DNA from: a virus | Lineage: Duplodnaviria; Heunggongvirae; Uroviricota; Caudoviricetes | Virus record (IMG/VR): IMGVR_UViG_2734482779_000006 | Coordinates: 1 to 27,343 of that record | Direction: 5' to 3' (one strand) | DNA: 27,343 bases | Shown: piece by piece, positions 5,520-24,046 of the stretch | How positions within the stretch are numbered: the first letter of the stretch is position 1 | How the letters are laid out: every line of letters begins with the position of its first letter | Made by a program: the position numbers and the translations under genes | The notes under the pieces: model-generated | What the model was told of the DNA's origin: nothing | What the model saw: only the letters and a program-made list of their open reading frames with translations | Databases searched by the model: none

Positions 5520-5520
5520 G

Positions 5521-5548
5521 AAAAACCCACCGTCAGGTGGGTTTTTTG
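5521..5548. terminator. bidirectional intrinsic terminator
   Basis: Stem ACCCACC/GGTGGGT with loop GTCA, flanked by an A-run upstream and a T-run downstream; lies between convergent genes ending at 5519 and 5533. Confidence 0.6.
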
Positions 5549-6230: not shown

Positions 6231-6292
6231 AGCCCCAACTGCGGTAACAGTCAGGGCTTCGGTTGTCGGTAAATCCGTGGAGAAAAACCAAC

Positions 6293-7195: not shown

Positions 7196-7214
7196 CAGAT
7201 AACCAACGCAACGA

Positions 7215-7238
7215 CCCAGCTTCGGCTGGGTTTTTTTA
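7215..7238 (+). terminator. rho-independent terminator after ant
   Basis: Hairpin CCCAGC-TTCG-GCTGGG followed by TTTTTTT. Confidence 0.7.
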
Positions 7239-7305
7239 TGCCCAAAATTCACCGTAGCTACGCTGCGGCGATTCCTTGTATCTGGAGCAAATTAAATGAC
7301 AGACA

Positions 7306-7794: not shown

Positions 7795-7820
7795 ATTCAT
7801 TCCTTAAATAGAGATTCACT

Positions 7821-9953
7821 ATGTCAAATATTGTGCCAAATGTTATAATTTCAATGCCAAGTCAACTATTTACGTTAGCCAGAAAATTCCAAGCCGCAAG
7901 CAATGGCAAGATATTCATTGGTAAGATAGATTCCGATCCTACGCTCCCACAGAATCAAGTGCAGGTTTATGTGGAGAATGAAGACGGTTCTCACGTTCCT
8001 GTTTCGCAACCAATCATCATTAACGCTGCTGGTTATCCTGTATATAACGGACAGATTGCCAAATTCGTTACCGTGCAAGGCCATTCTATGGCTGTTTATG
8101 ATGCGTATGGTGCACAGCAGTTTTACTACCCAAACATTCTGAAATATAACCCTGACCAATTAGAGTTGAGATTAATTGGACCGGATGGTTTTAAATACAT
8201 AGGGAGATGCAAAAATATTAATGATTTACGTCTAATAGAACCAACAATTGAAAGTCAATTAATAAATGTTATTGAGCATAGTGATGGTGTTGGTATCGGT
8301 GGCGGTTTTTTTGAGTATGATTCAACAGATAATACTTCAGAAGATGATGATGGAATGATAATTGTCACGCCTGGTGGAAAGCGTTGGAAAAGGATATGCA
8401 ATAAAGTGTATGCTGATTATTACGGAATTGTTCCAGATGGAGTAACGGATTATCATGATAAATTGAACAAAGCACTGCAAGCGGCAAAAATGGCAACGGT
8501 GAAAGAGCTTATTCTTTCTGAAGGTACTTACGGGATTAACTCTGCACTGAAAGTACCATCTCACGTTAGATTGCGTGGGGTGGGGAAATTTAAGACCGTT
8601 ATTCTAGCACTACCAACAATGCCGATAATTGAAAACTGTATTCAGAACGAGCTTTATGAATACAGGGTATTCAGGACAAACTACGATACTTCTATCCACA
8701 TAGAAGACTTATGTGTAGATGCTAACAATCGAGCAAGAAATCCGTCAGAAACATGGATGGATGCCACACAGGGGACTACTATTTTATTTTCTACTGTTAG
8801 CCACAGTTCCATCAAAAACGTTTACTGTAAGCGTGGTTTGCAGCATGGTATAGATATTTGTGCCGGGTATTATTTCGATGATGGAAATATTGATAATAAT
8901 GCAGTTGGCGGTAGCTATGACATTGTTGTTGAAGACACTTTTGTTCAAAACAGTCAACTTGACGATCTCATTACAACGCATAATAGCAGTGATATTGTAA
9001 TTAACCGCTGCCGAGTATGGAACGATGACCCATCTCAAGTATGGAATGATAACCAACACGGAATTGAAATTGATGAAGGAAGTTATAACGTCACAGTAAT
9101 GGATTGTTATGCTGAAAATGTTATCACTGGGTTTCAACAAAAAGGTCACTCCACTACAATGCCTGCTAGAAGTGTCCGATTCATTCGTTGTTATGCAAAA
9201 GATTGTGTTTACAGTTTCCAAATTGAACATCGAAACTCACAAACAATACCTTCTGGGCAACATCAACAAGCGCGTAATTCAGTGATTGAGGATTGTACGT
9301 CTGATAACGCAAATAATATTAAATATCAGGCTCTTCACGCTCGCGCGCTTCTTGTTTTAGGTTTTTTTGGTGTTTATGTGCGAAATCTGAGAGTTATAGG
9401 AGGGTCAGGAAATATATATTTAACTGGTGGTGCTAAATATATAAATATCGATGGTGTTCAGTGGACTGGAGGGTATGATGGAGCATCAAGCACCACACAG
9501 GAAGGGTTGATACATATAGAAACTAACGCAGCAGTTGATGATTATTGCATTCGTGATTTTATATGTGAAGATACGGTTACCGTGCCACTTATAAGAGACC
9601 TTACTGACACCACTGTTCAGCGAGAAATATCAAATGTTCGTGGGTATGGCGGGGATAATTCAATCCCAATGATCGCTATTGCGCCGCAGTCTGGTGATAA
9701 TATATCTAATATATCTAATGCGGGTACGTGGGCCTGCGCCATTAGAGATATGGCTAGAGAGGTAGGACAAGGTGATTACGCTCAAAGTGTATCCTTCCAG
9801 AATGGTTTCATTTTTATTTCAGGTAATGGCACCCCAAATGGGGTTATATCTGGCAAACCTGGTGCCGTGTATGTTAACACGGCGAGTGGATTTCAGTATC
9901 TTTGCACGGCTATAGGCAAAAATAACTGGGTTCCAATTACAACCGGAGTTTGA
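7821..9953 (+). CDS. tailspike protein with P22-type N-terminal head-binding domain
   Basis: First ~110 aa ([49 protein letters not shown]...[15 protein letters not shown]...LKYNPDQ) closely parallel the P22 gp9 N-terminus; the remainder is a long divergent receptor-binding region; 710 aa. Confidence 0.9.
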
Positions 9954-10012
9954 TGGTTAAAAATATCACACGCAAAGCTTTGCATCGGTTTGCAAGGTTT
10001 TGCGCCAATTCC

Positions 10013-11170
10013 CTATGATACATTCCCATCAAGCCAGTCCGCCCACCATTGCATCATTTCTCTGCGCTTATCCAGATACTGAGCATGGTTGTAAATCCCG
10101 CGTACAGATCCGCCGTTGGCATGTGCCAGTTGCACTTCAATAGCATCAGCAGGCCATTCGTGCTCGTTCATAATTGTGCTGAATTCATGCCTGAATCCGT
10201 GACCGCTTTCCAGACCTTCATAGCCGATTTGTTTGATCACAAGCAATACCGCGTTCTCGCAGATTGGCTTCTTCTTATCGTTGCGACCGGCAAAAACAAA
10301 CTCTGATACTGGTTTAGTGATTGAGCTTAGCGTAGTGAGAAGTTCAATCACCTGGTCTGACATAGGAACCACATGAATTTTGCGTCCTTTCATCACACTG
10401 GCGTCGATGGTGATAATCCTGTTTTCAAAATCGACGTTCTTCCATTGCATGGAACGAAGCTCTTTAGTTCTTAGGGCTGTATAGCGTAAAACCTTGGTGG
10501 CAATGAGCGATACGATACTTCCTGAAAATGTTGCCAGTGCTTTGTTGAATGCCGGGATCTGGTCTGCAGGAAGAAACGGGAAGTTCTTCTTGCGGTATCC
10601 CTTCATGGCGTCAGCAAGGTCAGGTGCCGGGTTATATTTAGCCCTTCCGGTGACAATAGCGTAACGGAAAACCTCGCCGCATCTTCTGCGTGCTTTGTTG
10701 GCTCGCTCCATTGCCCCGCGATCTTCAAATCTGCGGATTACTTCCAACAGTTGCATCGGCTCAATATCCTGAATTTCAAGGCCGCCGATGATGGGTAAAA
10801 TGTCGTCATCAAACATTTTTGCAAGTTCATTTGCATAGCCTACTGACCAGACTTGCTTCTTGTGCTCGTACCATTCCTTGTAAATGGCGCTAAAGGAGTT
10901 GTTGTTAGACGAAGCCTTTTTCGCCTTTACCGGATCGATGCCAACCGAGATGTCTTTCCTCGCGGTCCATGCTTTATCCCTTGCCTCCTGCAAAGTCATA
11001 AGCGGATATTTTCCGACGGTCAGGATTTTCTCCTTACCGTCAATCTTGTAGCGAAGCTGCCATACCTTTTTCCCGGATACAGGGACATAAAGGTACAGTC
11101 CATTACCATCGAGAAGGCGGTATGGTTTTTCTTTCGGCTTTGCTGCTTCAATCTGCTTAACGGTGAGCAT
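10013..11170 (-). CDS. intS: IntS-type tyrosine integrase (P4-like, argW-specific)
   Basis: 385 aa from MLTVKQIEAAKPKEKPYRLLDGNGLYLYV (integrase N-terminal arm-binding type); catalytic motifs GHGFRHEFST and LAHANGGSVRGIYNHAQY; the 16-bp argW-derived att core lies about 160 bp upstream. Confidence 0.9.
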   Translation of the reverse strand: MLTVKQIEAAKPKEKPYRLLDGNGLYLYVPVSGKKVWQLRYKIDGKEKILTVGKYPLMTLQEARDKAWTARKDISVGIDPVKAKKASSNNNSFSAIYKEWYEHKKQVWSVGYANELAKMFDDDILPIIGGLEIQDIEPMQLLEVIRRFEDRGAMERANKARRRCGEVFRYAIVTGRAKYNPAPDLADAMKGYRKKNFPFLPADQIPAFNKALATFSGSIVSLIATKVLRYTALRTKELRSMQWKNVDFENRIITIDASVMKGRKIHVVPMSDQVIELLTTLSSITKPVSEFVFAGRNDKKKPICENAVLLVIKQIGYEGLESGHGFRHEFSTIMNEHEWPADAIEVQLAHANGGSVRGIYNHAQYLDKRREMMQWWADWLDGNVS

Positions 11171-11330
11171 GGGTAAAAATCCGGTGGGTAAAATTATTTT
11201 ATCCACTTTTTACCCGTCATGTAGTGCGGCTGTCAACGATCTGACGCGAACCATGACGAACTGTAAATCTACGGAAGGCTTGATATTCAGGGGATTTTGC
11301 GGACTGGTACGGATGGGAGCGAACTGATAA

Positions 11331-11346
11331 ATGGTGTCCCCTGCAG
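11331..11346. repeat. att core direct repeat ATGGTGTCCCCTGCAG, identical to the argW 3' end at 23971-23986
   Basis: Exact 16-bp match to the tRNA acceptor/T-arm 3' end; positioned upstream of the intS start in the same way that argW sits upstream of the second integrase. Confidence 0.65.
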
Positions 11347-11568
11347 AAATCATCTTAATTATTATCGTATTGATTTATATGTTATTTATTTTGGCTGTCT
11401 TGTTTTTGTACCCGTTTTGTACCCGTTTTATTCTATTCCCAATTTAAACTTCGATTCTGAAAAGGTGAGTGGGGGAGGTTATCATTTTATGTATCATTGT
11501 TGTAGACACAGAATAATTACTCGCCTATCCTCACTGTATACACACCATAGATACAGGAGTTAACCCAC

Positions 11569-11817
11569 ATGCGCACACAGGTTGTATTGCAAAAATGGGG
11601 TAACAGCATTGCCCTTCGACTAACGGGAAACCTTAAAACCGTTCCGGGTTTTTCAGTGGGTGATATCGTCAACGTTGAAATTAGTGAAAAAGGGCTTTTT
11701 GTAGAAAAGCCTGCACGCCGTCGCCTGAGTGAAGCCGAACTACTCGCCGGGATAACGCCAGTTACAGCGCACGCTGACGAAATTGCCACCCCATTCAATG
11801 AGGAGGTTGATTACTGA
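11569..11817 (+). CDS. MazE/ChpS-family antitoxin (AbrB/SpoVT fold)
   Basis: 82 aa; KWGNSIALRL motif and acidic C-terminus typical of MazE/ChpBI; stop overlaps the toxin start. Confidence 0.8.
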   Translation: MRTQVVLQKWGNSIALRLTGNLKTVPGFSVGDIVNVEISEKGLFVEKPARRRLSEAELLAGITPVTAHADEIATPFNEEVDY

Positions 11818-12161
11818 TGTTTGTACCTAAGCGTGGTGATATTTGCTGGCTGGATTTTGAGCCGCAGAAAGGAAAAGAGATCGGAAAGTATCGCCCGGCA
11901 CTCATACTGTCCCATGAGCAATATAACCGACTCACCGGGTTTGTCATATGCTGCCCCATAAGTACGAGCATACGAAATGCTCCCACAGAAGTTCCGGTAA
12001 CAAATCTGGACGCCCCCAGCGTGGTAGCAACCACACTCATTCAAACCCTTGACTGGCGTCAGCGGAAAGCGCGCTTAATCACAGAGGCAGAAGATGGGGT
12101 ATTTAATGATGTGCTTGAAAGAGTCATTACTCTGATTGGTGGAGAGCATCTGCTTAAGTAA
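11817..12161 (+). CDS. MazF/PemK-family endoribonuclease toxin
   Basis: 114 aa; PKRGDICWLDFEPQKGKEIGKYRPALIL matches the MazF/ChpBK N-terminal signature; start overlaps the antitoxin stop by 1 nt. Confidence 0.85.
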   Translation: MFVPKRGDICWLDFEPQKGKEIGKYRPALILSHEQYNRLTGFVICCPISTSIRNAPTEVPVTNLDAPSVVATTLIQTLDWRQRKARLITEAEDGVFNDVLERVITLIGGEHLLK

Positions 12162-12204
12162 AAGGAGGGCTGAGAAGCCCTCAACGTTACCGGAAATTTC
12201 CTTG

Positions 12205-13476
12205 CTATTCTTTCCAGTCAATCCCATCCAGTAAGCACCCTGCCTCATATTGCCCCACCACCCAGTCAAGGTTACAGGACTCATAGAACGAGAGGCGATT
12301 ATACTGAGGCTCGTTTTTTACCAGGCCACGAACGGAACCACGCTGCCAGTACAGACACAGATTGGCAAGAGGTGTGATCAATACAGCATTGTCCGGGAAA
12401 AATGGAACGGTTACAGCCGGGAGATTCCCCAGAACGGGATTTTTAATGATTTCCTCGTTAAGCAAAATTTCCTGATTCATCTGCGATGGATCAAGACGGT
12501 TTATCAAAGGCCATTGTTTACGGACCAGCGTATTGTGACTGCATACGGCCACAATGCCTTCCTGCCACTGTTCATCAATCATGGATTGCCAGGCATCCAG
12601 AACGAGCGCATCTATCGTATGGTGTGTACCGCGTGTATTACTTTTCGGTGATGAAACAGAAAGGCCGCTGATAACCCTTCCCGCCGCTTCATTTCGAAAC
12701 TTCTGCAACCAGCCCACGCCACAATCGTCACGCCCCGGATATGTTTTAGGGTCAGATTTGGCGGCATAATGTGTGCCGTTAAAACCAATCTGAATTAAAT
12801 CCAGCCATTTCCGGCGTTCAAAAGCGGCCCGCGCACTTCCTTCAAGGCCGTTTGCGGATGCGTGAGCATCGGCATTGTCGTAGTTCAACGCAAAATCAAA
12901 ATTAACCTGCTCGCAGCGGTAGCCCCTTGAAACCAGTGAATGCGCCTGTAGTGGCGAACGGCGCTCGTGAGGTGGCGATGTACGTGCCAACGACCCCGAA
13001 GCGTCTACCAGCACAACCCGACCTGATATATCCGTAACAGGCACGGGAGTTATTTCAGCAAGGAAATTTGCCTGCCATCCACTGGCAAGCGTTGCACTCT
13101 GGCGAGGAACGGGTTCAACTTCTGACGAATAGCGCGCAGTGTCACCGGAAAAGTGCAAATCCTTCGGATGCTTTCCGGTTATCGACTCGATAGCGCAATT
13201 GAAAACCATCTGAGACTGTTGATTTCGTTGTGATACAACAGAATCAGCAGTGCAATTATAACGCTCAATGCCGTCGTTATTACCCCCACCGCTTGCAGTA
13301 TGCAGGGTGTGAAGCTCAAGCTCACGCTCCAGTTTTTGATATTCATTGTCCAGCGCGCGACGCGTCTCATCGCTTATGCTTGCTGTGTTTGCTTTCAGGC
13401 GATTCCGGGACATTAATCCCCTGAGTCGGCTCACTATATCAGCGCCGTGCAAATGTGGAGTATTCAGACCGCCCAT
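12205..13476 (-). CDS. candidate P2-family major capsid protein (gpN-like)
   Basis: 423 aa from the ATG overlapping the upstream stop (TAATG at 13474-13478); segments NFDF...GFNG...GWLQKFRNEA...GNLPAVTVPFFPDNAVLITPLANL...NYxSxNLDWVVGQYEAGCL resemble my recollection of P2-family capsid proteins; sits in a late-type operon downstream of an Ogr/Delta gene; needs confirmation. Confidence 0.45.
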   Translation of the reverse strand: MGGLNTPHLHGADIVSRLRGLMSRNRLKANTASISDETRRALDNEYQKLERELELHTLHTASGGGNNDGIERYNCTADSVVSQRNQQSQMVFNCAIESITGKHPKDLHFSGDTARYSSEVEPVPRQSATLASGWQANFLAEITPVPVTDISGRVVLVDASGSLARTSPPHERRSPLQAHSLVSRGYRCEQVNFDFALNYDNADAHASANGLEGSARAAFERRKWLDLIQIGFNGTHYAAKSDPKTYPGRDDCGVGWLQKFRNEAAGRVISGLSVSSPKSNTRGTHHTIDALVLDAWQSMIDEQWQEGIVAVCSHNTLVRKQWPLINRLDPSQMNQEILLNEEIIKNPVLGNLPAVTVPFFPDNAVLITPLANLCLYWQRGSVRGLVKNEPQYNRLSFYESCNLDWVVGQYEAGCLLDGIDWKE

Positions 13477-14186
13477 TACTGCCACCCCCGGCAGAGTTCT
13501 CTGCCCTCCGCAAGGTCGCGCATTTTTTCTGGATTCTGTCGCGCCGCGCTCCATTGTACAGGTGAAGGGGCGCTCCTGATTGCGCAGCTTACTGAATCCG
13601 GGAGTTTCTCCGGGCAATAACGCAGCGGGCTGGAGGTGTCGCTTTCGGTATCGTTAATCCGGCCGCGAATCATCCCGACACTTTCAGCAGTATCTGCCGC
13701 TTTCAGTGTTTCGCATATTTTCTTTTCTGCGTTATACAGCGGCTGGCCAAGCAGCTCACATAAACCACGAATCAATAACAGAACAGGGGTCAGCTCGTTA
13801 ATCAGTTCGGGAAGTGCTTTTGCAAATATCTCTGCCCGCAACTTATTATCAATACTTTCGTAAGCACAACCAGCCTCTGCCGCGTTATAACGACACTCCA
13901 GTAGCCTGATGCGCGCCTCATCATGCAGCACCCGCAGACGCTCAAGATTTTCTCGCGCCACACCCGCCTGAATGGATAATTTCGCGGAGGCTTCCGTTTT
14001 TACTCCCAGCGCAGACAGGATTGAGTTCTGCCAGTCACGATCGAGAGACTCCAGTTCCCCTTTCGTCTGTTCGATAGTCGCTTCCAGATTGGTGACTAAT
14101 GATTCCTGTTCACTGAGCTTTGCCCTGGCTGTATCAAACTGTGCTTTACATACCTGATGTTCGGCGCTTGCCTGAGTTATATCCAT
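13476..14186 (-). CDS. coiled-coil protein, candidate capsid scaffolding or size-determination protein (gpO/Sid-like)
   Basis: 236 aa, strongly helical and heptad-like N-terminal half; translationally coupled to the capsid-like gene; size close to P4 Sid (244 aa as recalled). Confidence 0.4.
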   Translation of the reverse strand: MDITQASAEHQVCKAQFDTARAKLSEQESLVTNLEATIEQTKGELESLDRDWQNSILSALGVKTEASAKLSIQAGVARENLERLRVLHDEARIRLLECRYNAAEAGCAYESIDNKLRAEIFAKALPELINELTPVLLLIRGLCELLGQPLYNAEKKICETLKAADTAESVGMIRGRINDTESDTSSPLRYCPEKLPDSVSCAIRSAPSPVQWSAARQNPEKMRDLAEGRELCRGWQ

Positions 14187-14350
14187 TATTTGCTCCTGTA
14201 ATACATTTTTTACTTACGCCGATTTTTTCCATATTGCGTAATACATTCCAGCCGATTTTGTTCTCGTAATACGCTCACAATACTGTTGTATTACGCTTTC
14301 TTATATCGCGGGTGTTAAATCCCGACATAAACAATCAGGGAGGCAACACG

Positions 14351-14584
14351 ATGAAAAAACAAAAGAAAATGCGATGCGTATTACGCTGTATTCGTATTCC
14401 GCTCGAAATCGACCATAAAATAAATCAGATATGTAAGGACAGAGAGATGAACTACTCCCAGTGCGTCAGGATGTTTATCAGTCAGGGAATTAAGGCTGGG
14501 GAAAAGCATGAAGAAGACCGCAACGGGCGCAATGTCGCGGGGGATGTGTGGGCCTGGGCAAATGACCAGAACCACACGACATAA
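14351..14584 (+). CDS. small ribbon-helix-helix (CopG/Arc-like) DNA-binding protein
   Basis: 77 aa from ATG 14351 (GGGAGG RBS); RCIRIPLEIDHKINQICKDREMNYSQCVRMFISQG fits a beta-strand then helix-helix RHH pattern; divergent from the scaffold/capsid operon. Confidence 0.5.
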   Translation: MKKQKKMRCVLRCIRIPLEIDHKINQICKDREMNYSQCVRMFISQGIKAGEKHEEDRNGRNVAGDVWAWANDQNHTT

Positions 14585-14634
14585 TACAGAAATAACGCAG
14601 CCGGTCACACTCGCTGGCTGTGTTATACAAATCA

Positions 14635-14817
14635 CTATGAAGTTTTCGACTTCCTGCGCTTAGTGATGCGTACAAACGACTCAAGCGTACAAAAACAGGC
14701 CCCGCACTCAATATTATTGCACTGGTAATACGTTTTGTAGATGTTTTGTTCGTGTTCTTCCAACGAACGACCACGGGTGCGGGCTGAAGCGCCACAGGCC
14801 GGGCAAGGGAAAGACAT
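14635..14817 (-). CDS. Ogr/Delta-family zinc-finger late transcription activator
   Basis: CPACGASARTR...YYQCNNIECGACF is the C-x2-C...C-x4-C Ogr/Delta zinc finger; AGGAG RBS 6 nt upstream of ATG 14817. Confidence 0.8.
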   Translation of the reverse strand: MSFPCPACGASARTRGRSLEEHEQNIYKTYYQCNNIECGACFCTLESFVRITKRRKSKTS

Positions 14818-15387
14818 ATCACGCTCCTCTTACTGGTGTGAAATTTAACCTATTATATCTTCCGCCGCCTCCTCTGGCTGTATCAAATAAATCCGCAACG
14901 GTCGCTGCGTATTACGCGCAGGCACACCGTTCCCATACTCACTCCTCACATTCCCCGTATCAGTTCTCTCTTGCAGTAAGAACGGCTCTGGCTGGCGATA
15001 AAACTAACCCGGTCGGGCATTCCCACAGTCTTTAGCGAAAGATGTAATTTACCCCCTGAAACGCGGGCTGTTCCCCCGTCACCTGCGCGCGAAAAACTCA
15101 CCGTTTTTTGTGCACGCACGAAATCGCCCTCCGGGCGCGCCCGTACTGGGCCGGATGGGCAAAAAGTTACTCTAAAAAATTGTGCAAATTTGTGCACTTT
15201 TGTGCAAACGGGAAGAGGCTGTTTAAAGGCGGTTTTTTGCGTTTTTTTGGTAGCTGTAACGTGATGCGTATTACGTTTTTATTCGCTTCTATGTGAAGAG
15301 ATAACAATGATTTCATTCAATTTATTGTGTTGCACTTTTGTTGCTGGTCTTGCCAGTGTTTTTTTGCCTCTACCTCAAAATCCGGTA

Positions 15388-15690
15388 GGGGGTGCGCAAA
15401 CGGGTTACAAAGGTTACAGCCCCCTAAAACACATATTAACACCATGATTTTAAATGAAATTGTTTGTAACCTTTTTGAGGTTACAGAAGGTTACACGAGG
15501 TTACACCAATTAAAAACATATTAATTATCAATTAGTTATAAGCGTGCTCTGTAACCATGCGTAACCTCTGCATAAAGGTTACATGTAACCCTGTTGTAAC
15601 CCATTTTGTAACCTTTTAAAGGTGTTATAATATATTGATATATAATATATTTTTCTGTTTGTAACCTTTGTAACCCGTTTGCGCACCCCC
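15388..15690. repeat. 30-bp perfect inverted repeat (15388-15417 and 15661-15690) flanking an array of about 14 GGTTAC/GTAACC hexamer iterons
   Basis: Left arm GGGGGTGCGCAAACGGGTTACAAAGGTTAC is the exact reverse complement of the right arm; hexamers between the arms often fall at 10-11 bp phasing; AT-rich core TATAATATATTGATATATAATATA at about 15626-15650. Confidence 0.7.
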
Positions 15691-15940
15691 CCCCGGACTT
15701 TAGCGCGCGCCTTTAAAATGTTAATTAAACTAACTTACTATGTGTCACTCTCATTAACTTTCTGTGACTAAAATGTGTCTCGTCACTGTGGAACTCTTTC
15801 TGATAATCAGGGGGCAAAAAATTGATGGCGGCACCACTGCAATATGGCCACCATTGCATTGCTGTTACCGTTGGTTCTGGCCAACAAAAAAGGCCAGTGG
15901 AAAACTGACCTCTTTTGCTGTGAATGTAGTGTTCTGCGGG

Positions 15941-16942
15941 TTACTCTGCTGGCTCTTTTTCTTTGGCGATATTCGCATTAGCCACTGGATTAAACTTCAG
16001 GACATCAGACAAATAATCAGGCGCAAAATGTGCGTATATCATTGTTTGTTGAATATTTGCATGCCCTAAAACTCGCTGAAGAGCAATTATACTCCCTCCA
16101 TTCATCATAAAATGCGTAGCGAATGTATGCCGTAATACATGAACAGCTTGCCCCTTTGGCAGATCTGGCTTTACAGCGCGAAGCATTTTACGGTATTCAC
16201 CATAATCAACATCAAACAACCCCCCCGAATCTTTTGTTTTGATTTCGCGAACAACTTCATTTGAAATGGGAACAATGCGGACTTTACCGTTTTTGGTTTT
16301 GTTAAATATCACACGATTATCAATGATGTGTTCTGCTCGCAAGCTTTTTGCCTCTCCCCATCTGGCCCCCGTACTAAGGCACAGCAATGTAATTCGACGC
16401 GCATCACCATTAGAAAAATTCAACAAACGAATAATTTCTTCATGTGTCAGATATGTCATTTCTGAAATCTTTCGTTTCATAGCGGGAACAGAACGAACAG
16501 GATTTTTACTATGAAATTCTCCACTCTGGATCAACATGGTGAACATTCCAGCCAATTCCGCTTCATCTCGCTGAATTGTAGAAATTTTGACTCCTGCTCC
16601 CAATCTCTCGCTGCGATACATAGCCATAAACCGCGCATTTATTTGTTCTGCTCGCGGATCTCCCATTTCTTTAATTACTTTCTTTAGTCTTAATTTAACA
16701 TTGTCAGCGTATGGTTTGTTGCGTCCACCCAGTTTCCACCACAGCTCCAAGAGTTCAGAAATGCGCCTGTGATCAGCTGGCTTTTCAAGCCACTCTTTAT
16801 CATTCATATGGCTAAGAACATATCGCTCAAAAGCTAAGGCATCTGCTTTCTTTTTAAAAAGCCGCTGAATTCTGCGTCCATACCGCCCGTTTGGCCTGAT
16901 ATCTACCTTATAGGAGCCATCATCACGCTTTTTAACGGACAT
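15941..16942 (-). CDS. P2-type tyrosine integrase/recombinase
   Basis: 333 aa from ATG 16942 (AGGAGGG RBS 9 nt upstream, 3 nt after the primase stop); N-terminus MSVKKRDDGSYKVDIRPNGRYGRR is typical of P2-family integrases; catalytic HVLRHTFATHF and LGHANIQQTMIYAHF. Confidence 0.85.
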   Translation of the reverse strand: MSVKKRDDGSYKVDIRPNGRYGRRIQRLFKKKADALAFERYVLSHMNDKEWLEKPADHRRISELLELWWKLGGRNKPYADNVKLRLKKVIKEMGDPRAEQINARFMAMYRSERLGAGVKISTIQRDEAELAGMFTMLIQSGEFHSKNPVRSVPAMKRKISEMTYLTHEEIIRLLNFSNGDARRITLLCLSTGARWGEAKSLRAEHIIDNRVIFNKTKNGKVRIVPISNEVVREIKTKDSGGLFDVDYGEYRKMLRAVKPDLPKGQAVHVLRHTFATHFMMNGGSIIALQRVLGHANIQQTMIYAHFAPDYLSDVLKFNPVANANIAKEKEPAE

Positions 16943-16944
16943 AT

Positions 16945-19614
16945 TTAGCGTCCCTCCTTGTAGCTGAATATCCAGCATTTCAATACTTCATTTTCTTTAG
17001 CCTGGGCTACCCCCCTTCCGGTGTTCGCCTGTTTGACTACCTCGCTACGGACTGACTTGTACCCAATCAGTGGCCGAGAACGACCAGTCTTGAGAAGCTT
17101 TATCATTTCGGGATTGGTTTGGATCTTCACATGGTGAATAGCGGCAACCTGCTCCAGTTGCGGGATACTAACGGCAAGCCCATTCTGGGATCCCTTGCCA
17201 AAGTGGTTTACGCCGTATGCTGTTATGCCGTCCAGATAGTCGAACGCCTCCCAGAACGCTATTACTTCCGGCAAGTCATCCGTTACCGCTTTAGCTTGTT
17301 CCGCTGCCATTCGTTCCAGTTCCTGGCATGTGGCATTAAGCCATTCATCCGGGATATCAATAACGCATTTCAGCGCCCTGACCAGCGCAATAAGTTGCGC
17401 GTGATTTTTGGCAATACGCTGATGACGAATATTTTCGCAACCATAAAGGCGGGTTGTTTCAGGATCAGATAGTGCCATAAACGTCTCCATAATCGCCCGT
17501 TCCTGACTTACTGCCCGATGGATAAAACCTGATACCTGCTCAACGGGGTAAAGCTCCAGCCGTTTTGCTGCCAATCGGCTATCTGGTGAGTGGCGTTTTT
17601 TATCGGTGTATACGCGTACCAGACGCTCAATAATTGCCGATGAGGCGTTTACCGTGGCATTCTGCGCAATCACGATAGCCCCCTTAAAAACGGGGTCATA
17701 TGTGGCGTTATCATTGGTTTTAACGCCACGCACCCCAATACCGCCACCGTTATAGAGGCTTTTCAGGTTATCGAAATCAAACGCCCCCCTTTTTTGTGCG
17801 TTATCGCCCCTGTCCGCTTCAATCAGAACAACAGGTAATCCAGCAACCTGTCCAAAAGTTCGCTTCCAGCCTGATTCTGAGCCTTTGGTTGGATCAACAC
17901 CTTCATAGTTGTCACGGCCACACAAACGCCAGCAAAAATCAATTAACGTTGTTTTACCCGTACCTGGCTCTCCGGTAATCTCAAGAAAGGGGTAAGATGT
18001 GTTTTTCTGCCTGATTTGTTCGCTGAACAACGAACCCAACCAGAAAGCCAGGGTAATAATTCCCTTTTCACCAAACGCCAGCCAGAGATCTTCCACCCAG
18101 GATGTTGTAAATTCATCCGGTTTTTTATAGTTAATCTGCAATATTGGTTTTTTATTCAATGGTTTTGCGTTTACGCCATCAATTTCAAAATAATCCTCTT
18201 CATTGATTTCGTAGGTTTTACCATTACAAACCGCGATATCATTAAACAACCACGCACCAATCTCTTTGTTGTATCCGATAAAATCCTGACCGATAACACT
18301 TTTTATTGCGGGAAGGTCATTTTTTATTAATGCGTCAAGGTGCGCAGTTGTTCCGGTATAAATACCGCCTTTTGCTACGTGCAACAGACGTTTTTTAAAT
18401 TCAGATGCGGATGTTAATTGCCCTGATGTAAAGGTGTTTTTCACCGTAGCACCATCCGGGAATGTAATGCGGAAGTAATACCATGCTTCATCCGTATCAT
18501 TGTTTCGAATGTAATAAAGCGGCACTGGGTTACAGTTTGCGATTTCTTTTACAGCGCCGGATTCCTTGAGTGCAATTTTGCGCGCTTCATCTTCGTCAAC
18601 ATTTCGCTCATTAATGACACGCTCAACAGCCTTCATATGGCGCTCAATATCCAGCTTGAACCAGAACACACGGTTATCAAAGGGAAAATGAAATTCCTTT
18701 CGCTCACGAAAGGAAAACATTATTAGTGCCTTATCTCTCGGAGATTTCGCCAGCAATAAATCACCGTAATAACGGTATCTTTTCACATCATGGCCACGTA
18801 GCTTTCCGGCGATGTGTAAATCATTCCAGTCGCGTTTATTGTTGTTTTCACCCGGTAACGCCGCTGCCGTTCTCCAGCCGCCTTCGGCGCTGCGTTCTGC
18901 ATGTTTTTTTGCGTAACGCTCACCCGCACGCCCGTTATCCAGCGCCCACACAATAACCGGACGGGGATTATCTCCGCACAGCTTCGCCAGTTCTTCCAGC
19001 GCCTTATCAGGGTAGTTCACGGCAGACATGACAGAAACGGCCGCAATGCCATTCTGGTTAAGGCTGATGGCATCAAAGACACCCTCACAAATCCAGATTT
19101 CTTTGGCCTTGCTTAAATCTGCTCCCGGATAAGCCCACCACAGCCCCTTGTAGCTGCCGGAAAAATTCGCCTTGCGCGCGAAGCGTTCCGGTCGGTCTAT
19201 GATGCGCTCCCACCACACACCGTCAGCCAGCGTAAAACGCACGGTAGCAGCTTGTTCGCCGCTTTCCTTGTCCTGGTATCGCTCCTGAGTAAATGCGCCC
19301 TTCAGTGGCTCCACAGCAATATTGCGCGCCTCCTGAAGATAAGCTGCCGCCGCTGCGTATGGATCGTCTTTCGTGCTGATATAGCGATCTGACCATGATG
19401 AAAACACATCCGGGTAAAGTTCTTTGGTCAGCAGGTCTGTACCGCATTTATTTTCACGCCCGCAGTGTACGATGTACGGCCTTTCAAGGCTGGTAAACAG
19501 CTCCTTCTTTCCACATTGCGGACAAACACCATACCGAAGGTAGTTATTTTCTTCTTTGAAGTTGTAATCACGGATAAGACGGTTAATAATCTCTTTTCTG
19601 GTATCAGGCTTCAT
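16945..19614 (-). CDS. P4 alpha-like primase-helicase
   Basis: 889 aa; N-terminal zinc-binding CPQCGKK...HCGRENKC; Walker A GEPGTGKTT in the C-terminal helicase region; location and size typical of satellite-phage alpha proteins. Confidence 0.9.
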   Translation of the reverse strand: MKPDTRKEIINRLIRDYNFKEENNYLRYGVCPQCGKKELFTSLERPYIVHCGRENKCGTDLLTKELYPDVFSSWSDRYISTKDDPYAAAAAYLQEARNIAVEPLKGAFTQERYQDKESGEQAATVRFTLADGVWWERIIDRPERFARKANFSGSYKGLWWAYPGADLSKAKEIWICEGVFDAISLNQNGIAAVSVMSAVNYPDKALEELAKLCGDNPRPVIVWALDNGRAGERYAKKHAERSAEGGWRTAAALPGENNNKRDWNDLHIAGKLRGHDVKRYRYYGDLLLAKSPRDKALIMFSFRERKEFHFPFDNRVFWFKLDIERHMKAVERVINERNVDEDEARKIALKESGAVKEIANCNPVPLYYIRNNDTDEAWYYFRITFPDGATVKNTFTSGQLTSASEFKKRLLHVAKGGIYTGTTAHLDALIKNDLPAIKSVIGQDFIGYNKEIGAWLFNDIAVCNGKTYEINEEDYFEIDGVNAKPLNKKPILQINYKKPDEFTTSWVEDLWLAFGEKGIITLAFWLGSLFSEQIRQKNTSYPFLEITGEPGTGKTTLIDFCWRLCGRDNYEGVDPTKGSESGWKRTFGQVAGLPVVLIEADRGDNAQKRGAFDFDNLKSLYNGGGIGVRGVKTNDNATYDPVFKGAIVIAQNATVNASSAIIERLVRVYTDKKRHSPDSRLAAKRLELYPVEQVSGFIHRAVSQERAIMETFMALSDPETTRLYGCENIRHQRIAKNHAQLIALVRALKCVIDIPDEWLNATCQELERMAAEQAKAVTDDLPEVIAFWEAFDYLDGITAYGVNHFGKGSQNGLAVSIPQLEQVAAIHHVKIQTNPEMIKLLKTGRSRPLIGYKSVRSEVVKQANTGRGVAQAKENEVLKCWIFSYKEGR

Positions 19615-19660
19615 ATATAAATCCTCTCCCCCCCCCTGTAAAAATACAGGGGGTTATTCT
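19615..19660 (-). other. stem-loop plus G9 tract in the primase 5' leader
   Basis: On the minus strand CCCCCTGTA-TTTTT-ACAGGGGG hairpin followed by GGGGGGGGGAGAGGA and the ATG; no U-tract, so not a canonical terminator. Confidence 0.4.
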
Positions 19661-19966
19661 TTATAATTGTTTATTGCTTTCTGAAATCCCCACAAACCGT
19701 GCAGCATGTAGAGAGAAAGGGCGCTCAGAGTAATAAATATTGCCTTTTATTCTTTCCAGTTCGCGCAACAAAATGCGCAAAATCGCCTTCATTTGTGAAC
19801 CTGATACAATGTCAGCGCCAGGAGTATCTATTGCAATGTCAGAGAAATAAGATAATAAATCAAGTGTTAAAATAACATCACAAAGAGAGTTATTTGCATC
19901 ATCGGAGATAAATCCAACATATTTAGATAAAATATCATGAATAAACATATTCTGATTTTCAGACAT
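19661..19966 (-). CDS. hypothetical protein (satellite early region)
   Basis: 101-aa ORF directly upstream of the primase leader; no recognisable motif. Confidence 0.4.
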   Translation of the reverse strand: MSENQNMFIHDILSKYVGFISDDANNSLCDVILTLDLLSYFSDIAIDTPGADIVSGSQMKAILRILLRELERIKGNIYYSERPFSLHAARFVGISESNKQL

Positions 19967-20033
19967 AAAAGCTCCCCGACCCGTTAAGGCCGAAATATAA
20001 AATTAATTCAGTTATCAGTTGGCAATTCGGGAA

Positions 20034-20252
20034 TCAGGCAGAAAGCTGCGTAACCTTCAACGCCCTGAAATGTGTCATTCCCAGCTCTTCCAGCCCTTCG
20101 GCTGCGCGGCGTATGGCTTCGCCCGGCCCCGTTCCGTATACCGTTGCGTGTGCATGTTTGGTTAACCCGCGCTTATTAACGGCATAACCCAACACAAAGA
20201 AACGTTTTTCACCACTGCCATTATTTTTACGGGATATTGAACGGCTTTTCAT
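20034..20252 (-). CDS. hypothetical small protein
   Basis: 72-aa ORF at the end of a chain of overlapping small genes. Confidence 0.4.
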   Translation of the reverse strand: MKSRSISRKNNGSGEKRFFVLGYAVNKRGLTKHAHATVYGTGPGEAIRRAAEGLEELGMTHFRALKVTQLSA

Positions 20253-20437
20253 TTCTTCACCTTTACCACTGATGCTGTGAGTTCTTCTTCTGGCAATTGA
20301 TATTTCGGCGCAATTTCTTCCGTATACCTGATAGCGTCCCTTGCCGCTTTTCCTTTTGATTTATATTTACGTATCGTGTGGAAGTTTTCTTCCTCTCCTG
20401 TTACCACATTACGCAATTTAATATGGATCTCGTACAT
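20249..20437 (-). CDS. hypothetical small protein
   Basis: 62 aa from internal ATG (MYEIHIKL...); stop overlaps the next start (ATGA). Confidence 0.4.
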   Translation of the reverse strand: MYEIHIKLRNVVTGEEENFHTIRKYKSKGKAARDAIRYTEEIAPKYQLPEEELTASVVKVKK

Positions 20438-20439
20438 CG

Positions 20440-20622
20440 TTACCCCTCCATGATTTTTACTGCGCATTTGTGGGTTAATCGCCCCTGTTTGTCATTGCGG
20501 GAATATGCCATACGACAGGCATCACGCCATGCATCGTCATAAGTCGGGTATTCCCGGGCATGAATCATCTGGCGAACGTCGCCGTTCTGGCAGTTAATCA
20601 GGGTGATAAGGAGCTTAAACAT
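20440..20622 (-). CDS. hypothetical small protein
   Basis: 60 aa from ATG 20622 with GGGAGG RBS 7 nt upstream (MFKLLITLINCQNGDV...). Confidence 0.4.
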   Translation of the reverse strand: MFKLLITLINCQNGDVRQMIHAREYPTYDDAWRDACRMAYSRNDKQGRLTHKCAVKIMEG

Positions 20623-20788
20623 GGCACGCCTCCCGGACACGAATACGGGCAACAAAGACCAGACGGGATGCCGGAAGCAGGGCGCGCGCTTCGCGCTCAC
20701 TGGCAGCGGTAACGGTATGAAGGCGGATATTTTTACCGTGGCACTGCATAAAGCGCCAGATAAAATCAGGGCGTGTTGATATAGCCAT
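20615..20788 (-). CDS. hypothetical small protein
   Basis: 57 aa from ATG 20788 (GGGAG RBS); the longer 175-aa version upstream is low-complexity and unlikely to be coding. Confidence 0.3.
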   Translation of the reverse strand: MAISTRPDFIWRFMQCHGKNIRLHTVTAASEREARALLPASRLVFVARIRVREACHV

Positions 20789-21204
20789 ATGAAAGGCTCC
20801 CAATTCAAGTTTAAGAAGCCTCACTACAACGCTGTCAAACGTGGTGGCGAGACGTAACAGGGTTGACAGACTGGCAAATTGGGAAACCAGCGAGCATAAA
20901 GCTCCCCCATTACGCCCCGCCATAATACGGGAAAGGGTGGTATTACGGGCACAAAAAAACCGCATTACGGAATACAAGCGGCTACCCGCCAATTTATTCA
21001 GGCTGTCAAACCCGGCACCTGTTTTATGAGGTGCGGGCAAACGATACGCCATGACAAAAAAGCGAGTCAAGCAATATTGCAAATTATTTTGGCGCGATTG
21101 CGCTGAGTGATTGATTTTTAAGAGTAAAAAAGCCATAATCATTTCTGCCTATTATTTCTTATTGTTGGTTTCAGGTGCACTAAATGCACATCCTTGACTG
21201 GTTG

Positions 21205-21236
21205 GCTCGCTAGCTTTAGCGAGCTTCTTTTTTTTG
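21205..21236 (+). terminator. plus-strand intrinsic terminator inside the satellite leader region
   Basis: GCTCGCTA-GCTT-TAGCGAGC hairpin followed by TTCTTTTTTTTG; orientation is antisense to the satellite genes. Confidence 0.5.
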
Positions 21237-21697
21237 CTCTGCTGCCAGTACCCGGCCTCCTTCCCTCACATGTAGTAATGTGCCCGCTCCAGTCAGCTGG
21301 ATAATGCTGTATTCCCGGACATCCGGTTATGATGTTTAAAGCGTTTGTTTGTTTATGCCACGTGGAGAATATCCCCATGTCGCCATTACTTGTATTTATC
21401 ATAACAGTTTACCCAATCCGGTTAATGTAACCGGAATAACTCAATTTCATACACTGTAAATAAATGCTGATTTTGAACTTAGCTCCTTGGAATATATTTC
21501 TTACGTGTGATGTACAGGTGAAAATATCCCTCTGATAGTCCATTTTCTTTTATTGGGTCACATCTGTTTACTCCGGTTCCCTTAACAAGGGTAGAGCATC
21601 TTTTAAACCATGAATGCATCTTTGGTTAAGTGATGTTTCTTATTGAATGAAATGTTTAGGCGCATATCGCGCCATGCTGACTATAAAGTGAAAATAA

Positions 21698-21919
21698 TTA
21701 AGCCTGAAAACGTTGTTGTTTTCTTTCTTCTATCCAGTCGATAATTTCCTCTTCAACCCATGCAACCGCACGAGGGCCTATTTTTATTGGTTTGGGGAAT
21801 ATATCAGATTTTATATCTTCGTAAATTCGAGCTCTCGATCTCCCTGTGATTTCAATGACTCTGGGGAGTCTTATTAATTTTTGAATCCGCCTTTCGCTGG
21901 TCTGTGAGTATGCTGACAT
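21698..21919 (-). CDS. AlpA/Vis-family transcriptional regulator or excisionase
   Basis: IRLPRVIEITGRSRARIYEDIKSDIFPKPIKIGPRAVAWVEEEIIDWIEER follows the AlpA pattern RLPxVxxxTGxxRxTIY...FPxP...GxRxVxWxExEIxxW. Confidence 0.8.
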   Translation of the reverse strand: MSAYSQTSERRIQKLIRLPRVIEITGRSRARIYEDIKSDIFPKPIKIGPRAVAWVEEEIIDWIEERKQQRFQA

Positions 21920-22448
21920 ATTGGCCTCCTGTATATGCTGAACACTTTATGTTAGCTCACAGTGGGAGCATGTAAGATCTCGCGGTCGTCTGCGGGACGA
22001 GAAAAATCATAAACAACGAAAAGCGGATTTGTAAATCTGGTCGATTTTCAGACGGGGTTGACATGGACAGTTAGATTTGTTCCATGTGTGAAATATACAT
22101 TTTAGGACCACTTTAAGCCGCTTTAAACCGCCTGGAAGCGACAAAGAATAACAAGTTAGTGCCAGAAAGGTTTGCTGACTTACCCTTTCAGGCACCAGGA
22201 AAGCCCGTTCTGGGGGATGTAATGCTTGCGAACGCTGGAATAGTGGTTTCTGAAAACAAAAAAAGAATTGAAAATGTGATACATATCACAAAATGATATC
22301 GATAAAATAGTTTGATTTTTTTTGTTTTTATTAAAAGCACTGGTTAATTGTGAAAAATTAATTATAAATCAAATAGATATATCTGTTTTTTTAGGGTAAA
22401 AATCACTAGGTGCTTTTAGTGAGGTCTTATTCTATTGATTTTAAAAGA

Positions 22449-22482
22449 TAAAAAAATCGGCGTGTCCACATATTGTCCACGC
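22449..22482 (-). terminator. rho-independent terminator downstream of the satellite integrase
   Basis: On the minus strand GGCGTGGACA...TGTGGACACGCC hairpin followed by GATTTTTTT. Confidence 0.6.
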
Positions 22483-22530
22483 CTTGAGCTTAATTCAGCC
22501 GCTTGGGGTAGTTTAGTTTGTTGAGTTGAT

Positions 22531-23793
22531 TCAGTCTGTTTCGTTAGCCCATTTAAAATCATAGGGGGCAATATATGCCGTCTTGCAGGTGTCGAGATAA
22601 TCAGCCCACCATTGCAACATTCGGCGGCGTTCCTGCATATGTTCAGCTCTGTGAATGTATGCAGCCCGGACACTGCCTCTTTCCCTGTGACTCATCTGAA
22701 GCTCAACGGCTTCTCTTGTCCACCTGCCTGACTCTGTCAGCGCCGAACAGGCCATAGCTCTGAATCCGTGGCCACAAATATCTTTTTTTGTGTCGTATCC
22801 CATGTGGCGTAATGCCTTGTTAATGGTGTTTTCGCTCATTGGTTTTATCTGGTAATGGTCGCCGGGGAAAATAAACAATTCATCACCGGATATATTTCTT
22901 ATATCGTCAAGAAGCTGCATGGCCTGAGTGGGCAAAGGGATGGCGTGAGGGGTTCCCATTTTCGTTCCACGATATGAATATTTTACGCCTTCTATTTTTT
23001 CGCGTTCTGCTGGTATTACCCACATTGATTTATCAAAGTCAATTTCATTCCAACGAGCAAAACGCAATTCACTTGAGCGAATAAAAATTAATAAATTTAA
23101 TTTTAGTGCAAATTGCGTTAATAACCGTCCATTCATCTTGTGGTGGTAATCATTTATTTTGCCAAGTAATTCAGGTAATCGCTCAAGGGGAAGAGCGGGG
23201 CGATGTTTGGTTTTATTAGTTTCGATTGCACCGTTCAGTTCCTGCGCTGGATTGTATTTAATCATTCCATTCTGTACAGCGTAGCGCATAATGGCGTTCA
23301 TTCGCTGCTTGTTACGTGATGCTGTCTCAAGCACTCCTTTATCTTCCATTTTGCGTAAAGGAATCAGTAGATCCATGGTTGTGATCTCGTTAATTGGCCT
23401 TTTACCAAGAATGGGGAAGATGTGGTTTTCCAGGTCTTTTAAGACTTTTTGCGCGTGTAATTCGCTCCAGCCCTTTTTCCGGCTGTGCCATTCTCTGGCA
23501 ACGTCTTCAAAAAGCACTATTTGAGGTTTTGGTGTGTGCAGTGGGTCAATGCCTTTAGCCAGGCTCGCCAGATATTCATCACGAGCGTTCCTTGCCTGTG
23601 CAAGTGTTACGGCAGGATAAATGCCTAAAGCTCGGGTCGTTTCTTTACCGTTGATAACCTTGCGAAAGCGCCAGTATTTTGAGCCGTTGGGGTGAACATA
23701 GAGATACAGGCCTTTCCCGTCACGAAGTTTTTTAATTTTGTTGTTGTCCTTATCTGGTTTGGCGTTACGTACAGCTACATCAGTCAGTTTCAT
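22531..23793 (-). CDS. IntS-family tyrosine integrase of the P4-like satellite
   Basis: 420 aa from MKLTDVAVRNAKP (GGAGGA RBS); N-terminal arm-binding type; catalytic GHGFRAMACS and SVRAAYIHRAEH; C-terminal MLQWWADYLD parallels intS MMQWWADWLD; immediately downstream of argW. Confidence 0.9.
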   Translation of the reverse strand: MKLTDVAVRNAKPDKDNNKIKKLRDGKGLYLYVHPNGSKYWRFRKVINGKETTRALGIYPAVTLAQARNARDEYLASLAKGIDPLHTPKPQIVLFEDVAREWHSRKKGWSELHAQKVLKDLENHIFPILGKRPINEITTMDLLIPLRKMEDKGVLETASRNKQRMNAIMRYAVQNGMIKYNPAQELNGAIETNKTKHRPALPLERLPELLGKINDYHHKMNGRLLTQFALKLNLLIFIRSSELRFARWNEIDFDKSMWVIPAEREKIEGVKYSYRGTKMGTPHAIPLPTQAMQLLDDIRNISGDELFIFPGDHYQIKPMSENTINKALRHMGYDTKKDICGHGFRAMACSALTESGRWTREAVELQMSHRERGSVRAAYIHRAEHMQERRRMLQWWADYLDTCKTAYIAPYDFKWANETD

Positions 23794-23971
23794 TATGTTG
23801 ATCCTCCAGACGGGTACAAATAAAAATCGAACCAAGCGTACCCGTTTTTATACCCATTTTAATATGGGCTTCAGGCAAATTTAACGAGAGATAACGAGAC
23901 AATGGAAGAGATTTAACTCATTGAAAAACAATGGGTAATGGTTTTTTCTGAGAGATTGCGAGAAGTTGCGA

Positions 23972-24046
23972 TGGTGTCCCCTGCAGGAATCGAACCTGCA
24001 ATTAGCCCTTAGGAGGGGCTCGTTATATCCATTTAACTAAGAGGAC
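23972..24046 (-). tRNA. argW: tRNA-Arg (anticodon CCU)
   Basis: 75-nt sequence GTCCTCTTAGTTAAATGGATATAACGAGCCCCTCCTAAGGGCTAATTGCAGGTTCGATTCCTGCAGGGGACACCA on the minus strand; cloverleaf with CCU anticodon and encoded CCA end. Confidence 0.9.

Follow-up and report, generated by a model that had tools for sequence, protein, structure and literature searches.

Why a satellite that already has an integrase should keep a second one in the middle of its genome, immediately behind its replication gene, is the question raised by the locus described here. The window, namely the whole stretch of 27,343 nucleotides that was analysed (positions 1 to 27,343 of IMG/VR record IMGVR_UViG_2734482779_000006, a virus of the Caudoviricetes), contains an element, 11331-23991, that is a single cos-type satellite of P2/P88-like phages. 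Its second tyrosine recombinase gene, here called int2, directly follows the gene for the primase-helicase. Considering that (i) the satellite's own integration module is complete, (ii) the arm-binding and catalytic domains of int2 are under selection with no site of its own, (iii) its specificity domain comes in helper-like versions, and (iv) its expression is tied to the replication operon, int2 may not serve integration of the satellite and may act in trans on the att sites of a helper prophage or phage, a reading to which a probability of about 0.4 is assigned.

The int2 gene and the replication operon

By sequence and domain content, int2 looks like a functional integrase of the P2-type family, and the label of P2-type integrase that it had received in a preliminary description of this DNA is upheld. 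Its product matches the Pfam models Int_N (PF24624, E 3.3e-25) and Phage_integrase (PF00589, E 6.9e-19) and is 53% identical to P2 Int across residues 1-327, with identities to other Peduoviridae integrases reaching 58% in tblastn comparisons against phages. Homology to P2 Int extends over the full length and includes an intact N-terminal arm-binding domain. The catalytic set R-K-H-R-H-Y is complete, and the motifs TGARW, TKNGK, HVLRHT, LGH, and YAH align with P2 Int and are conserved in all alleles. The final ~25 residues (PDYLSDVLKFNPVAN...EPAE) are satellite-specific, forming a tail of the pattern PDYL.DA..FNP.AN that is common to all satellite alleles and absent from the phage genes; the alleles of Escherichia coli end in EPAE or a close variant. 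In its context int2 departs from P2-type integrases, since it neither adjoins an attP nor lies at the edge of the element beside an att junction.

The open reading frame (ORF) of the primase-helicase (19614..16945, minus strand, 889 residues) ends with TAA at 16947-16945, and after a two-base AT spacer the ATG of int2 follows at 16942-16940, opening a 333-residue ORF that runs to 15941 on the same strand. A ribosome-binding-type site, AAGGAGG at 16959-16953, lies within the final primase codons, 10 nt before this ATG. The 2-nt gap and this site agree with the earlier observation of a second P2-type recombinase placed right after the primase stop with a strong ribosome-binding site. An alternative in-frame ATG at 16978 gives the 345-residue version of int2 found in the mechanical ORF list. 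No promoter-like or terminator-like site was found between the two genes. All 12 related E. coli loci and a Yersinia relative keep this stop-NN-ATG junction with AAGGAG(G/A), so that the arrangement of primase and int2 is not a product of chance. It is predicted that int2 is the last gene of the replication operon and translationally coupled to the primase; from this coupled and conserved junction, co-expression of a second intact tyrosine recombinase with replication within one element, as previously proposed, would also be expected. Directly 3' of int2, a hairpin at 15882-15920, kept in all loci with a G-U or compensated variant, probably terminates the primase-int2 operon.

The replication gene itself had been taken for a P4-type primase, and this assignment has to be revised. 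Comparison with P4 alpha by BLASTP returned only motif matches of 27-98 residues around Walker A and Toprim (best 29.6 bits), and in the Pfam search the protein matched Toprim_2 and Toprim_3 only, with no match to PF03288, the model used to detect P4-like satellites (PMC8628076). The Zn-finger, Toprim, and P-loop motifs and the iteron field downstream make it similar to P4 alpha by analogy, not by membership. On the contrary, it is a full-length member of phrog_1139 (E 2.4e-301, residues 3-886), with full-length identities of 42-50% to the primases of phiCTX, RSY1, and ESSI2_ev239 (42% to phiCTX, and 50% both to ESSI2_ev239 and to the primase of a Serratia P2-like prophage). The latter prophage, in Serratia marcescens (L007, 4289-6946), combines a Cox-C-Int switch with a phiCTX-type primase placed where P2 has gpA, and because of this 50% identity the satellite replicase may come from such a phage. 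A scan of genome contigs with the primase gave only two loci, the one from Thauera being too GC-noisy to read. A 101-residue ORF upstream of the primase shows no similarity to the 'Derepression' protein that a Salmonella relative has in this place.

The int2/ori region occurs in ~66 of 5426 complete E. coli genomes, always beside the primase, with the core of the element at argW or hpt-gcd. In the Yersinia relative the primase is 77% identical and the junction with int2 is the same. Sister satellites of Salmonella (primase 61% and 55% identical) and Pectobacterium (54%) have non-coding DNA straight after the primase and no integrase there, and int2 therefore seems to be an accessory gene acquired within a single branch of these satellites.

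Allele series, missing attP, and the satellite's own integration module

The satellites are 93-97% identical elsewhere, but the alleles that fill their int2 slot differ widely. At least six were distinguished: A (the one in the window), B, and C, two more in the protein database, and one in Yersinia enterocolitica. Types A, B, and C share only 50-58% identity with one another, and the Int to which each of them appears most similar comes from a different lineage of P2-like phages. For type B this is Int of the P88-like phage 569R5 (89% identity in protein, and 89.6% in DNA over 926 nt), for type C that of Chuche and P88_4B11 (82%), and for type A that of a pheA-site P2-like prophage present in 124 E. 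coli genomes (70-72%). The differences are concentrated in the core-binding domain, by 45-70% among A, B, and C; a comparative study of P2-like phages attributes site specificity to this domain and gives tgTGGaCa as their common arm consensus (PMC3448106). The A and C alleles are near-identical across many genomes, and a phage allele is nested within the type-B satellite diversity. The alleles L008, L009, and L013 are mosaic within the gene; between L008 and L009, synonymous divergence (dS) is 0.01-0.03 in the arm and core-binding domains and ~1.1 in the catalytic domain.

Despite this variability, int2 is intact in all 12 extracted E. coli loci (1002-1005 nt) and in the Yersinia enterocolitica copy. 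Purifying selection on int2 is strongest in the catalytic domain, where the ratio of nonsynonymous to synonymous change, omega, amounts to 0.02-0.05 between diverged type-B satellite alleles, against 0.08-0.10 in the core-binding and 0.15-0.19 in the arm-binding domain.

P2, 569R5, P88_4B11, and the prophages L005, L006, and L007 have a pair of direct arm repeats overlapping the 3'-terminal codons of int, followed by the core at a distance of ~100 nt. The likeness of the satellite gene to phage int ends 30 nt ahead of the phage stop codon, immediately in front of this arm doublet, and the P' doublet that overlaps the 3' end of the phage gene is replaced by the satellite-specific tail. Past the end of int2, E. 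coli satellites of types A, B, and C share one sequence. An arm doublet of the tgTGGaCa type was not found at the 3' end of int2, the positive controls P2, 569R5, P88_4B11, and L005 all showing it, and a search of the type-B satellite for a copy of the 569R5 attR/core gave only chance-level 12-13-mers. No region co-varying with int2 type was found either; the other variable segments, a 350-residue ORF and a 101-residue ORF, are independent of type. Taken from these comparisons, int2 seems to have lost its cognate attP. Loose pairs of arm motifs occur at chance level, and a doublet with two mismatches inside type-A int2 (16722) is accounted for by Trp-Trp codons.

One exact P2-type arm doublet, GTGTCCACATATTGTCCACG (TGTCCAC-N4-TGTCCAC), does stand in the element, at 22462-22481, between the terminal integrase and alpA. 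Among the sequences compared, the other occurrences of this pattern are confined to P' arms, those of P2 and P88_4B11. The doublet is found only in argW-type modules (the window, L001, and three IMG/VR contigs) and not in hpt-gcd satellites, is independent of int2 type, and could be a putative binding site for int2 or for the helper Int.

The satellite is predicted to integrate and excise by its terminal P4-like Int and AlpA module, which has its own GTACCCG arm repeats on both sides of the core. The gene argW (tRNA-Arg CCT) lies at 23972-24046 and its last 21 nt recur once, at 11331-11351 (20 of 21 nt). The att repeats at 11331-11351 and 23971-23991, the only copies of this argW end, bound a 12.6-kb element, in agreement with the satellite of ~12.6 kb with an integrase beside argW that had been described. 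The block from MazEF to icd, with int2 inside, is found at two E. coli sites, argW and hpt-gcd, and the hpt-gcd copies carry a different terminal module of Int and helix-turn-helix (HTH) regulator, Int, regulator, and arm sites having been exchanged as one unit. In every locus int2 is internal, the edges being formed by the terminal Int and by the MazEF or Hok end. Since the terminal module has its own arm repeats and is swapped while int2 stays internal, int2 is unlikely to be the element's own integrase. To this extent the non-integrative role suggested earlier for it holds, although inversion and dimer resolution, the two activities then named, find no support.

Role of int2 and competing explanations

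Action on helper att sites could proceed as follows. Upon entry of the satellite into its replicative cycle, int2 would be made together with the primase, and with helper Cox and the host integration host factor (IHF) it would recombine helper attL with attR. The Int supplied by the satellite would thus free the helper genome for replication and late-gene dosage. As an alternative step, int2 might set the integration state of the helper in another way, to the benefit of the satellite, with an effect that could be either a help or a harm to the helper. Transcription of int in P2-type phages starts at Pc, the lysogenic promoter, and Cox shuts this promoter off; because of this repression Int would be limiting after derepression. 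The likeness of the satellite's cos-like region to P88_4B11 and an excess of pheA-site prophages point to the identity of the helper: a P2-like prophage at pheA is present in at least 13 of the 66 carrier genomes, versus 2.3% overall. A second copy of type-B int was found in 8 of the 22 genomes with a type-B satellite, in 1-4 of the 38 genomes with other satellites, and in ~5% of all genomes. A precedent is given by EcCIMP1, whose AlpA-like excisionase AlpA_1 supports excision of the helper Kapi1 (PMC11773190). Put in its widest form, and with the odds somewhat against it, the proposal would be that satellites of P2/P88 phages have domesticated the helper integrase as an attP-less, exchangeable cassette on the replication operon to control the integration state of the helper prophage, by excision on demand or entrapment, with alleles that track helper attachment-site types.

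Several considerations weigh against an action of int2 on the helper, whose sites we infer throughout as its target. P4 exploits P2 and is not known to excise it, so that a need for helper excision is not obvious. The A and C alleles are only 70-80% identical to the nearest phage Int, which makes shared core specificity uncertain, and no closer phage copy of type A or C int was found in the E. coli genomes searched. Type matching between satellite int2 and helper Int is partial, not strict: strain ETEC4069 carries a type-B satellite, but its only P2-like prophages are type-A-like and type-C-like. The second type-B copies were not located and hence are not confirmed as prophages, and the co-occurrence counts are confounded by clonal lineages of pig enterotoxigenic E. 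coli (ETEC) as well as by possible gene conversion between co-resident int genes. The purifying selection on int2 may partly date from the time when the alleles still sat in phages. Finally, its function is accessory, sister satellites doing without it.

Much of what favours helper sites as the target serves equally an antagonistic action, in which int2 would work on helper att and arm sites at the helper's cost, through re-integration, entrapment, or an infecting phage being pushed to lysogeny, as satellite interference or host protection. Satellites commonly cut helper yield, and int2 is predicted to be expressed only with the satellite replicative operon. Nevertheless, excision requires Int no less than integration does, an excess of Int by itself is not known to prevent excision of P2, and the sequence gives no sign of the direction of the effect. 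This explanation is regarded as unlikely, though not negligible.

A second integration system, using an alternative site through an unrecognised attP, would look for its site in the non-coding DNA downstream of int2, for example in an 81-nt block together with the arm-like ACATTCACAG just after the stop codon. The block contains TGCAAT-N9-ATTGCA at 15838-15858, is better conserved than int2, and occurs only in satellite-carrying genomes (n=65), in one or two places each. Its layout of int, terminator, and conserved block resembles that of int followed by attP in P2 and phiCTX, arm specificity is common within the P2 family, and the argW-type module has the exact P2-type arm doublet at 22462-22481. 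However, every examined copy of the element sits at argW or hpt-gcd and is bounded by the terminal Int, the block has no chromosomal counterpart (attB) in the 5426 E. coli genomes, and it is the same for the A, B, and C alleles despite their dissimilar core-binding domains. Moreover, the phage P' doublet has been removed, and the doublet at 22462 neither occurs in hpt-gcd satellites nor follows int2 type. Such a use of int2 is accordingly improbable. Two further candidates in this region were discarded. The N(C/A)CACA repeats at 15741-15793 with the inverted repeat at 15838-15858 were rejected as a P2-like attP because the repeats are unconserved in other satellites and the block is identical for all int2 types. 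The 81-nt block was rejected as cos, a cos-like region being present at 15041-15206.

Beyond the block lies the putative origin, from which the element is predicted to replicate with its phiCTX-type primase-helicase. The iteron motif has 17 matches in the window versus 2.8 expected, and the same origin design is present in Yersinia; the ori/crr iterons of P4 are an analogy. Origin iteron variants reassort independently of int2 type. Given that int2 adjoins this origin, it might resolve replication dimers, giving monomers that fit small capsids or segregate as a plasmid. Translation together with a replication protein agrees with such a task, which would explain the coupling to the primase, and monomeric circles are the substrate of P2-type packaging. 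An arm-binding domain, however, is absent from Xer/Cre-type resolvases, and int2 keeps one under selection; a common site is hard to square with very different core-binding domains and identical flanks, and no allele-covarying site was found. Sister satellites with the same primase and origin design manage without int2, and no plasmid-borne int2 was found in 72,556 plasmid records or on the plasmids of the 5426 E. coli genomes. Resolution of multimers, among them the dimers invoked in the preliminary description, is therefore given a low likelihood.

It is similarly doubtful that int2 is a neutral passenger, that is, a captured helper gene homogenised by gene conversion with co-resident P2-like prophages and tolerated in a silent operon. 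Mosaic alleles and a phage allele nested in type-B diversity do indicate ongoing exchange, type-B satellites and second copies of type-B int co-occur, and sister satellites have no int2. A mere passenger would nonetheless not be expected to be intact in all 12 E. coli loci as well as the one from Yersinia, to keep the coupling junction and the satellite-specific tail in all alleles, or to show the low catalytic-domain omega given above between satellite alleles; and types A and C are intact and near-identical across many genomes without a close E. coli phage donor.

The inversion formerly suggested would make int2 a Fim-type switch, flipping the segment between 42-nt inverted repeats (15377-15418 and 15660-15701, 93% complementary) that lie 240 nt from the gene. 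These repeats frame the putative iteron origin and their arms are themselves built of iterons; moreover, the segment has one and the same orientation in all 12 E. coli loci and in the Yersinia locus, and the arms do not differ between E. coli loci with A, B, and C alleles, which leaves a switch very improbable. Two independent tandem elements, each with its own integrase, can be practically dismissed: two integrases of different families do stand within 12.6 kb, and a P22-like prophage with a third integrase (10013-11206) does adjoin on the other side, but there is no third copy of the argW core in the window at up to 3 mismatches, which excludes the hidden att site between the modules that would have spoken against a single element, the MazEF-icd block with int2 occurs at two chromosomal sites with different terminal modules, and IMG/VR holds the element as contigs of ~12 kb.

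The satellite and its relation to known systems

The features that define the element are collected in Table 1. Leftward from argW the order is terminal Int, AlpA, C4 RNA, Icd-like ORF, small ORFs, primase, and int2, followed past int2 by the terminator, the 81-nt block, the iteron field, the cos-like region, the ogr/Delta-like gene, a 236-residue ORF, a capsid homologue, and MazEF. The C4, isrK-like, and a1/b1 RNA region lies inside and upstream of the Icd-like ORF, upstream of the icd...primase-int2 operon; it is predicted to silence the satellite by a C4/CI-type antisense RNA, so that the RNA immunity appears to be of P4/P1 type though the replicase is not P4-like. The mosaic of P4-like and P2-like parts noticed previously is thereby recovered in detail, with terminal Int, AlpA, and C4/CI-type RNA on the P4-like side, and the primase of P2-like phages, int2, the ogr/Delta-like gene, the capsid homologue, and cos on the P2-like side.

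Table 1. Positions of the main features of the satellite in the window.
Feature	Position	Strand	Basis or remark
int2, 333-residue P2-family heterobivalent tyrosine integrase, allele type A	15941..16942	-	Pfam, P2 Int alignment
Primase-helicase, 889 residues, with Zn-finger, Toprim_2, and Walker A GEPGTGKT	16945..19614	-	phiCTX-type family of P2-like phages
Coupling junction: AAGGAGG, primase TAA, AT, int2 ATG	16940..16959	-	Conserved in E. coli and Yersinia
Predicted intrinsic (bidirectional-type) terminator, 17-bp hairpin between A and U tracts	15882..15920	-	-23.7 kcal/mol, z -4.96
81-nt non-coding block	15805..15885		90-100% conserved in all satellites, with any int2 allele
Putative replication origin with two opposed sets of TGTAACC iterons (13 in all) and an AT-rich stretch	15377..15701		Iteron count
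cos-like region	15041..15206		76% identity over 170 nt to the joined genome ends of P88-like P88_4B11
ogr/Delta-like zinc-finger late-gene activator	14635..14817	-	Homology
Distal att core copy, closes the satellite	11331..11351		GTACCCG arm doublet at 11408 and 11419
C4/CI-type antisense RNA (20840-20927), isrK-like RNA, and a1/b1 targets	20840..21047	-	C4 70.5 bits, gathering score 45
AlpA-family regulator/excisionase, part of the terminal integration module	21698..21919	-	Pfam
Terminal P4-type integrase, the satellite's own	22531..23835	-	53% identical to P4 Int
att core, 3' end of argW	23971..23991		Terminal-Int arm repeats (GTACCCG and relatives) beside it, 23811-23856

The cos-like region includes three TTGTGCA repeats, and neither P2 cos nor P4 cos has a match anywhere in the window. 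A 'hypothetical protein' annotated in RefSeq relatives, at 14946-15206, overlaps this region and is probably not a gene. The capsid module (12205-14186, minus strand) holds a P2-family major capsid homologue (PF05125), ~34% identical to the head protein of P88_4B11 and provided with an additional N-terminal stretch of ~165 residues; the 236-residue protein that precedes it has weak coiled-coil-like matches. In the relatives A36, Yersinia, and Salmonella this pair adjoins AlpA instead, and it may be a capsid-size or capsid-forming module. At the att-distal end stands a MazE/MazF toxin-antitoxin pair (11569-12161, plus strand), and since relatives have Hok/Gef or YoeB/YefM there, this end seems to be a hotspot for cargo genes. 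The AT-rich region upstream of alpA contains a perfect 16-nt palindrome, TGTGATACATATCACA, at 22275-22290, a likely operator of the main leftward operon. The 15-nt motif CGATGCGTATTACGC, which contains the inverted repeat GCGTA-T-TACGC, occurs three times, upstream of the capsid operon (14372-14386), upstream of ogr (14903-14917), and between cos and ori (15262-15276), and has the look of an operator or activator site.

Positions 1-11206 of the window hold the end of the P22-like prophage, in tandem at the distal argW att copy and with its other att copy outside the window. Its genes include gp7, a gp20-like translocase, Arc/Mnt, an antirepressor, an HNH endonuclease (7306-7800), a tailspike with head-binding domain, and the third integrase mentioned above. 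In E. coli A36 (L019, 46970-49087) the argW site is empty, in the order dsdC, tRNA-Arg, yfdC. The element was also considered as EcCIMP1, a published phage-inducible chromosomal island (PICI) whose helper is P22-like, as is the neighbouring prophage; this was rejected, EcCIMP1 being located at proA-yagU and having other content.

Compared with the integrases of P2-like phages (P2 Int and the P88-like/Xuanwuvirus Int), int2 shows full-length homology of 53-89% depending on the allele, the same three domains (arm-binding, Int_N core-binding, and catalytic) with the six catalytic residues, and the same concentration of variation in the core-binding domain. In those phages int stands at the edge of the prophage behind the C repressor and is itself followed by attP, with the P' doublet overlapping its last codons; int2, on the contrary, is found mid-element, coupled to the primase, with a replaced C-terminal tail and neither arm doublet nor cognate core. 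Regarding phages with a phiCTX-type primase, the family to which the satellite primase belongs over its full length, phiCTX has int and attP downstream of the primase operon in the same direction. Their int is not fused to the primase cistron and keeps its own attP, whereas the satellite gene is coupled and has none.

The core set of P4-like satellites comprises int, psu, delta, sid, alpA, epsilon, and alpha (PMC8628076). With P4 the element shares Int, an AlpA/Vis-type regulator, C4/CI RNA immunity with an Icd-like ORF, a Delta/ogr-like activator, a helper-related cos, and, next to an iteron origin, a primase-helicase operon closed by a terminator. With the threshold relaxed to E 1, Pfam still gave no match of any satellite ORF to Psu, epsilon/ASH, or PF03288, and no Sid homologue was detected, Sid having no public Pfam model. 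The element further differs from P4 in its non-alpha primase, its own P2-family capsid homologue, and the internal int2, which P4 does not have, and in that Int and primase lie on the same side and in the same direction. No description of a satellite family combining P4-like control, a phiCTX-type replicase, and its own capsid homologue was found in the searchable literature; such a family is here defined in ~1% of complete E. coli genomes. Nor was an internal helper-type integrase in a satellite found described in the literature searched. Pipelines for P4-like satellites treat additional integrases as delimitation ambiguity, and where extra integrases are handled as boundary noise, mis-delimitation of an internal functional one happens easily.

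That satellites take over the capsids, packaging, and regulation of their helpers is known. P2-type prophages, for their part, are hard to induce, with Int limiting, and their natural mobilisation is puzzling, a puzzle on which the present locus bears. A working helper integrase without an attachment site, swapped by allele, would, if the action on helper sites holds true, imply satellite control over the exit of the helper from the chromosome or its entry there. It would then represent an undescribed mode of satellite-helper relation, in which the parasite carries the recombinase of its host virus rather than only sensing or redirecting its proteins. The closest parallel is EcCIMP1 of E. coli, where a satellite recombination protein likewise resembles that of the helper and serves helper excision, not its own (PMC11773190). 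There, however, an excisionase-like AlpA acts for a P22-like helper, the effect was shown experimentally, and the EcCIMP1 integrase did not complement that of the helper (PMC11773190), whereas int2, whose role we infer, is a complete integrase of the helper's own family.

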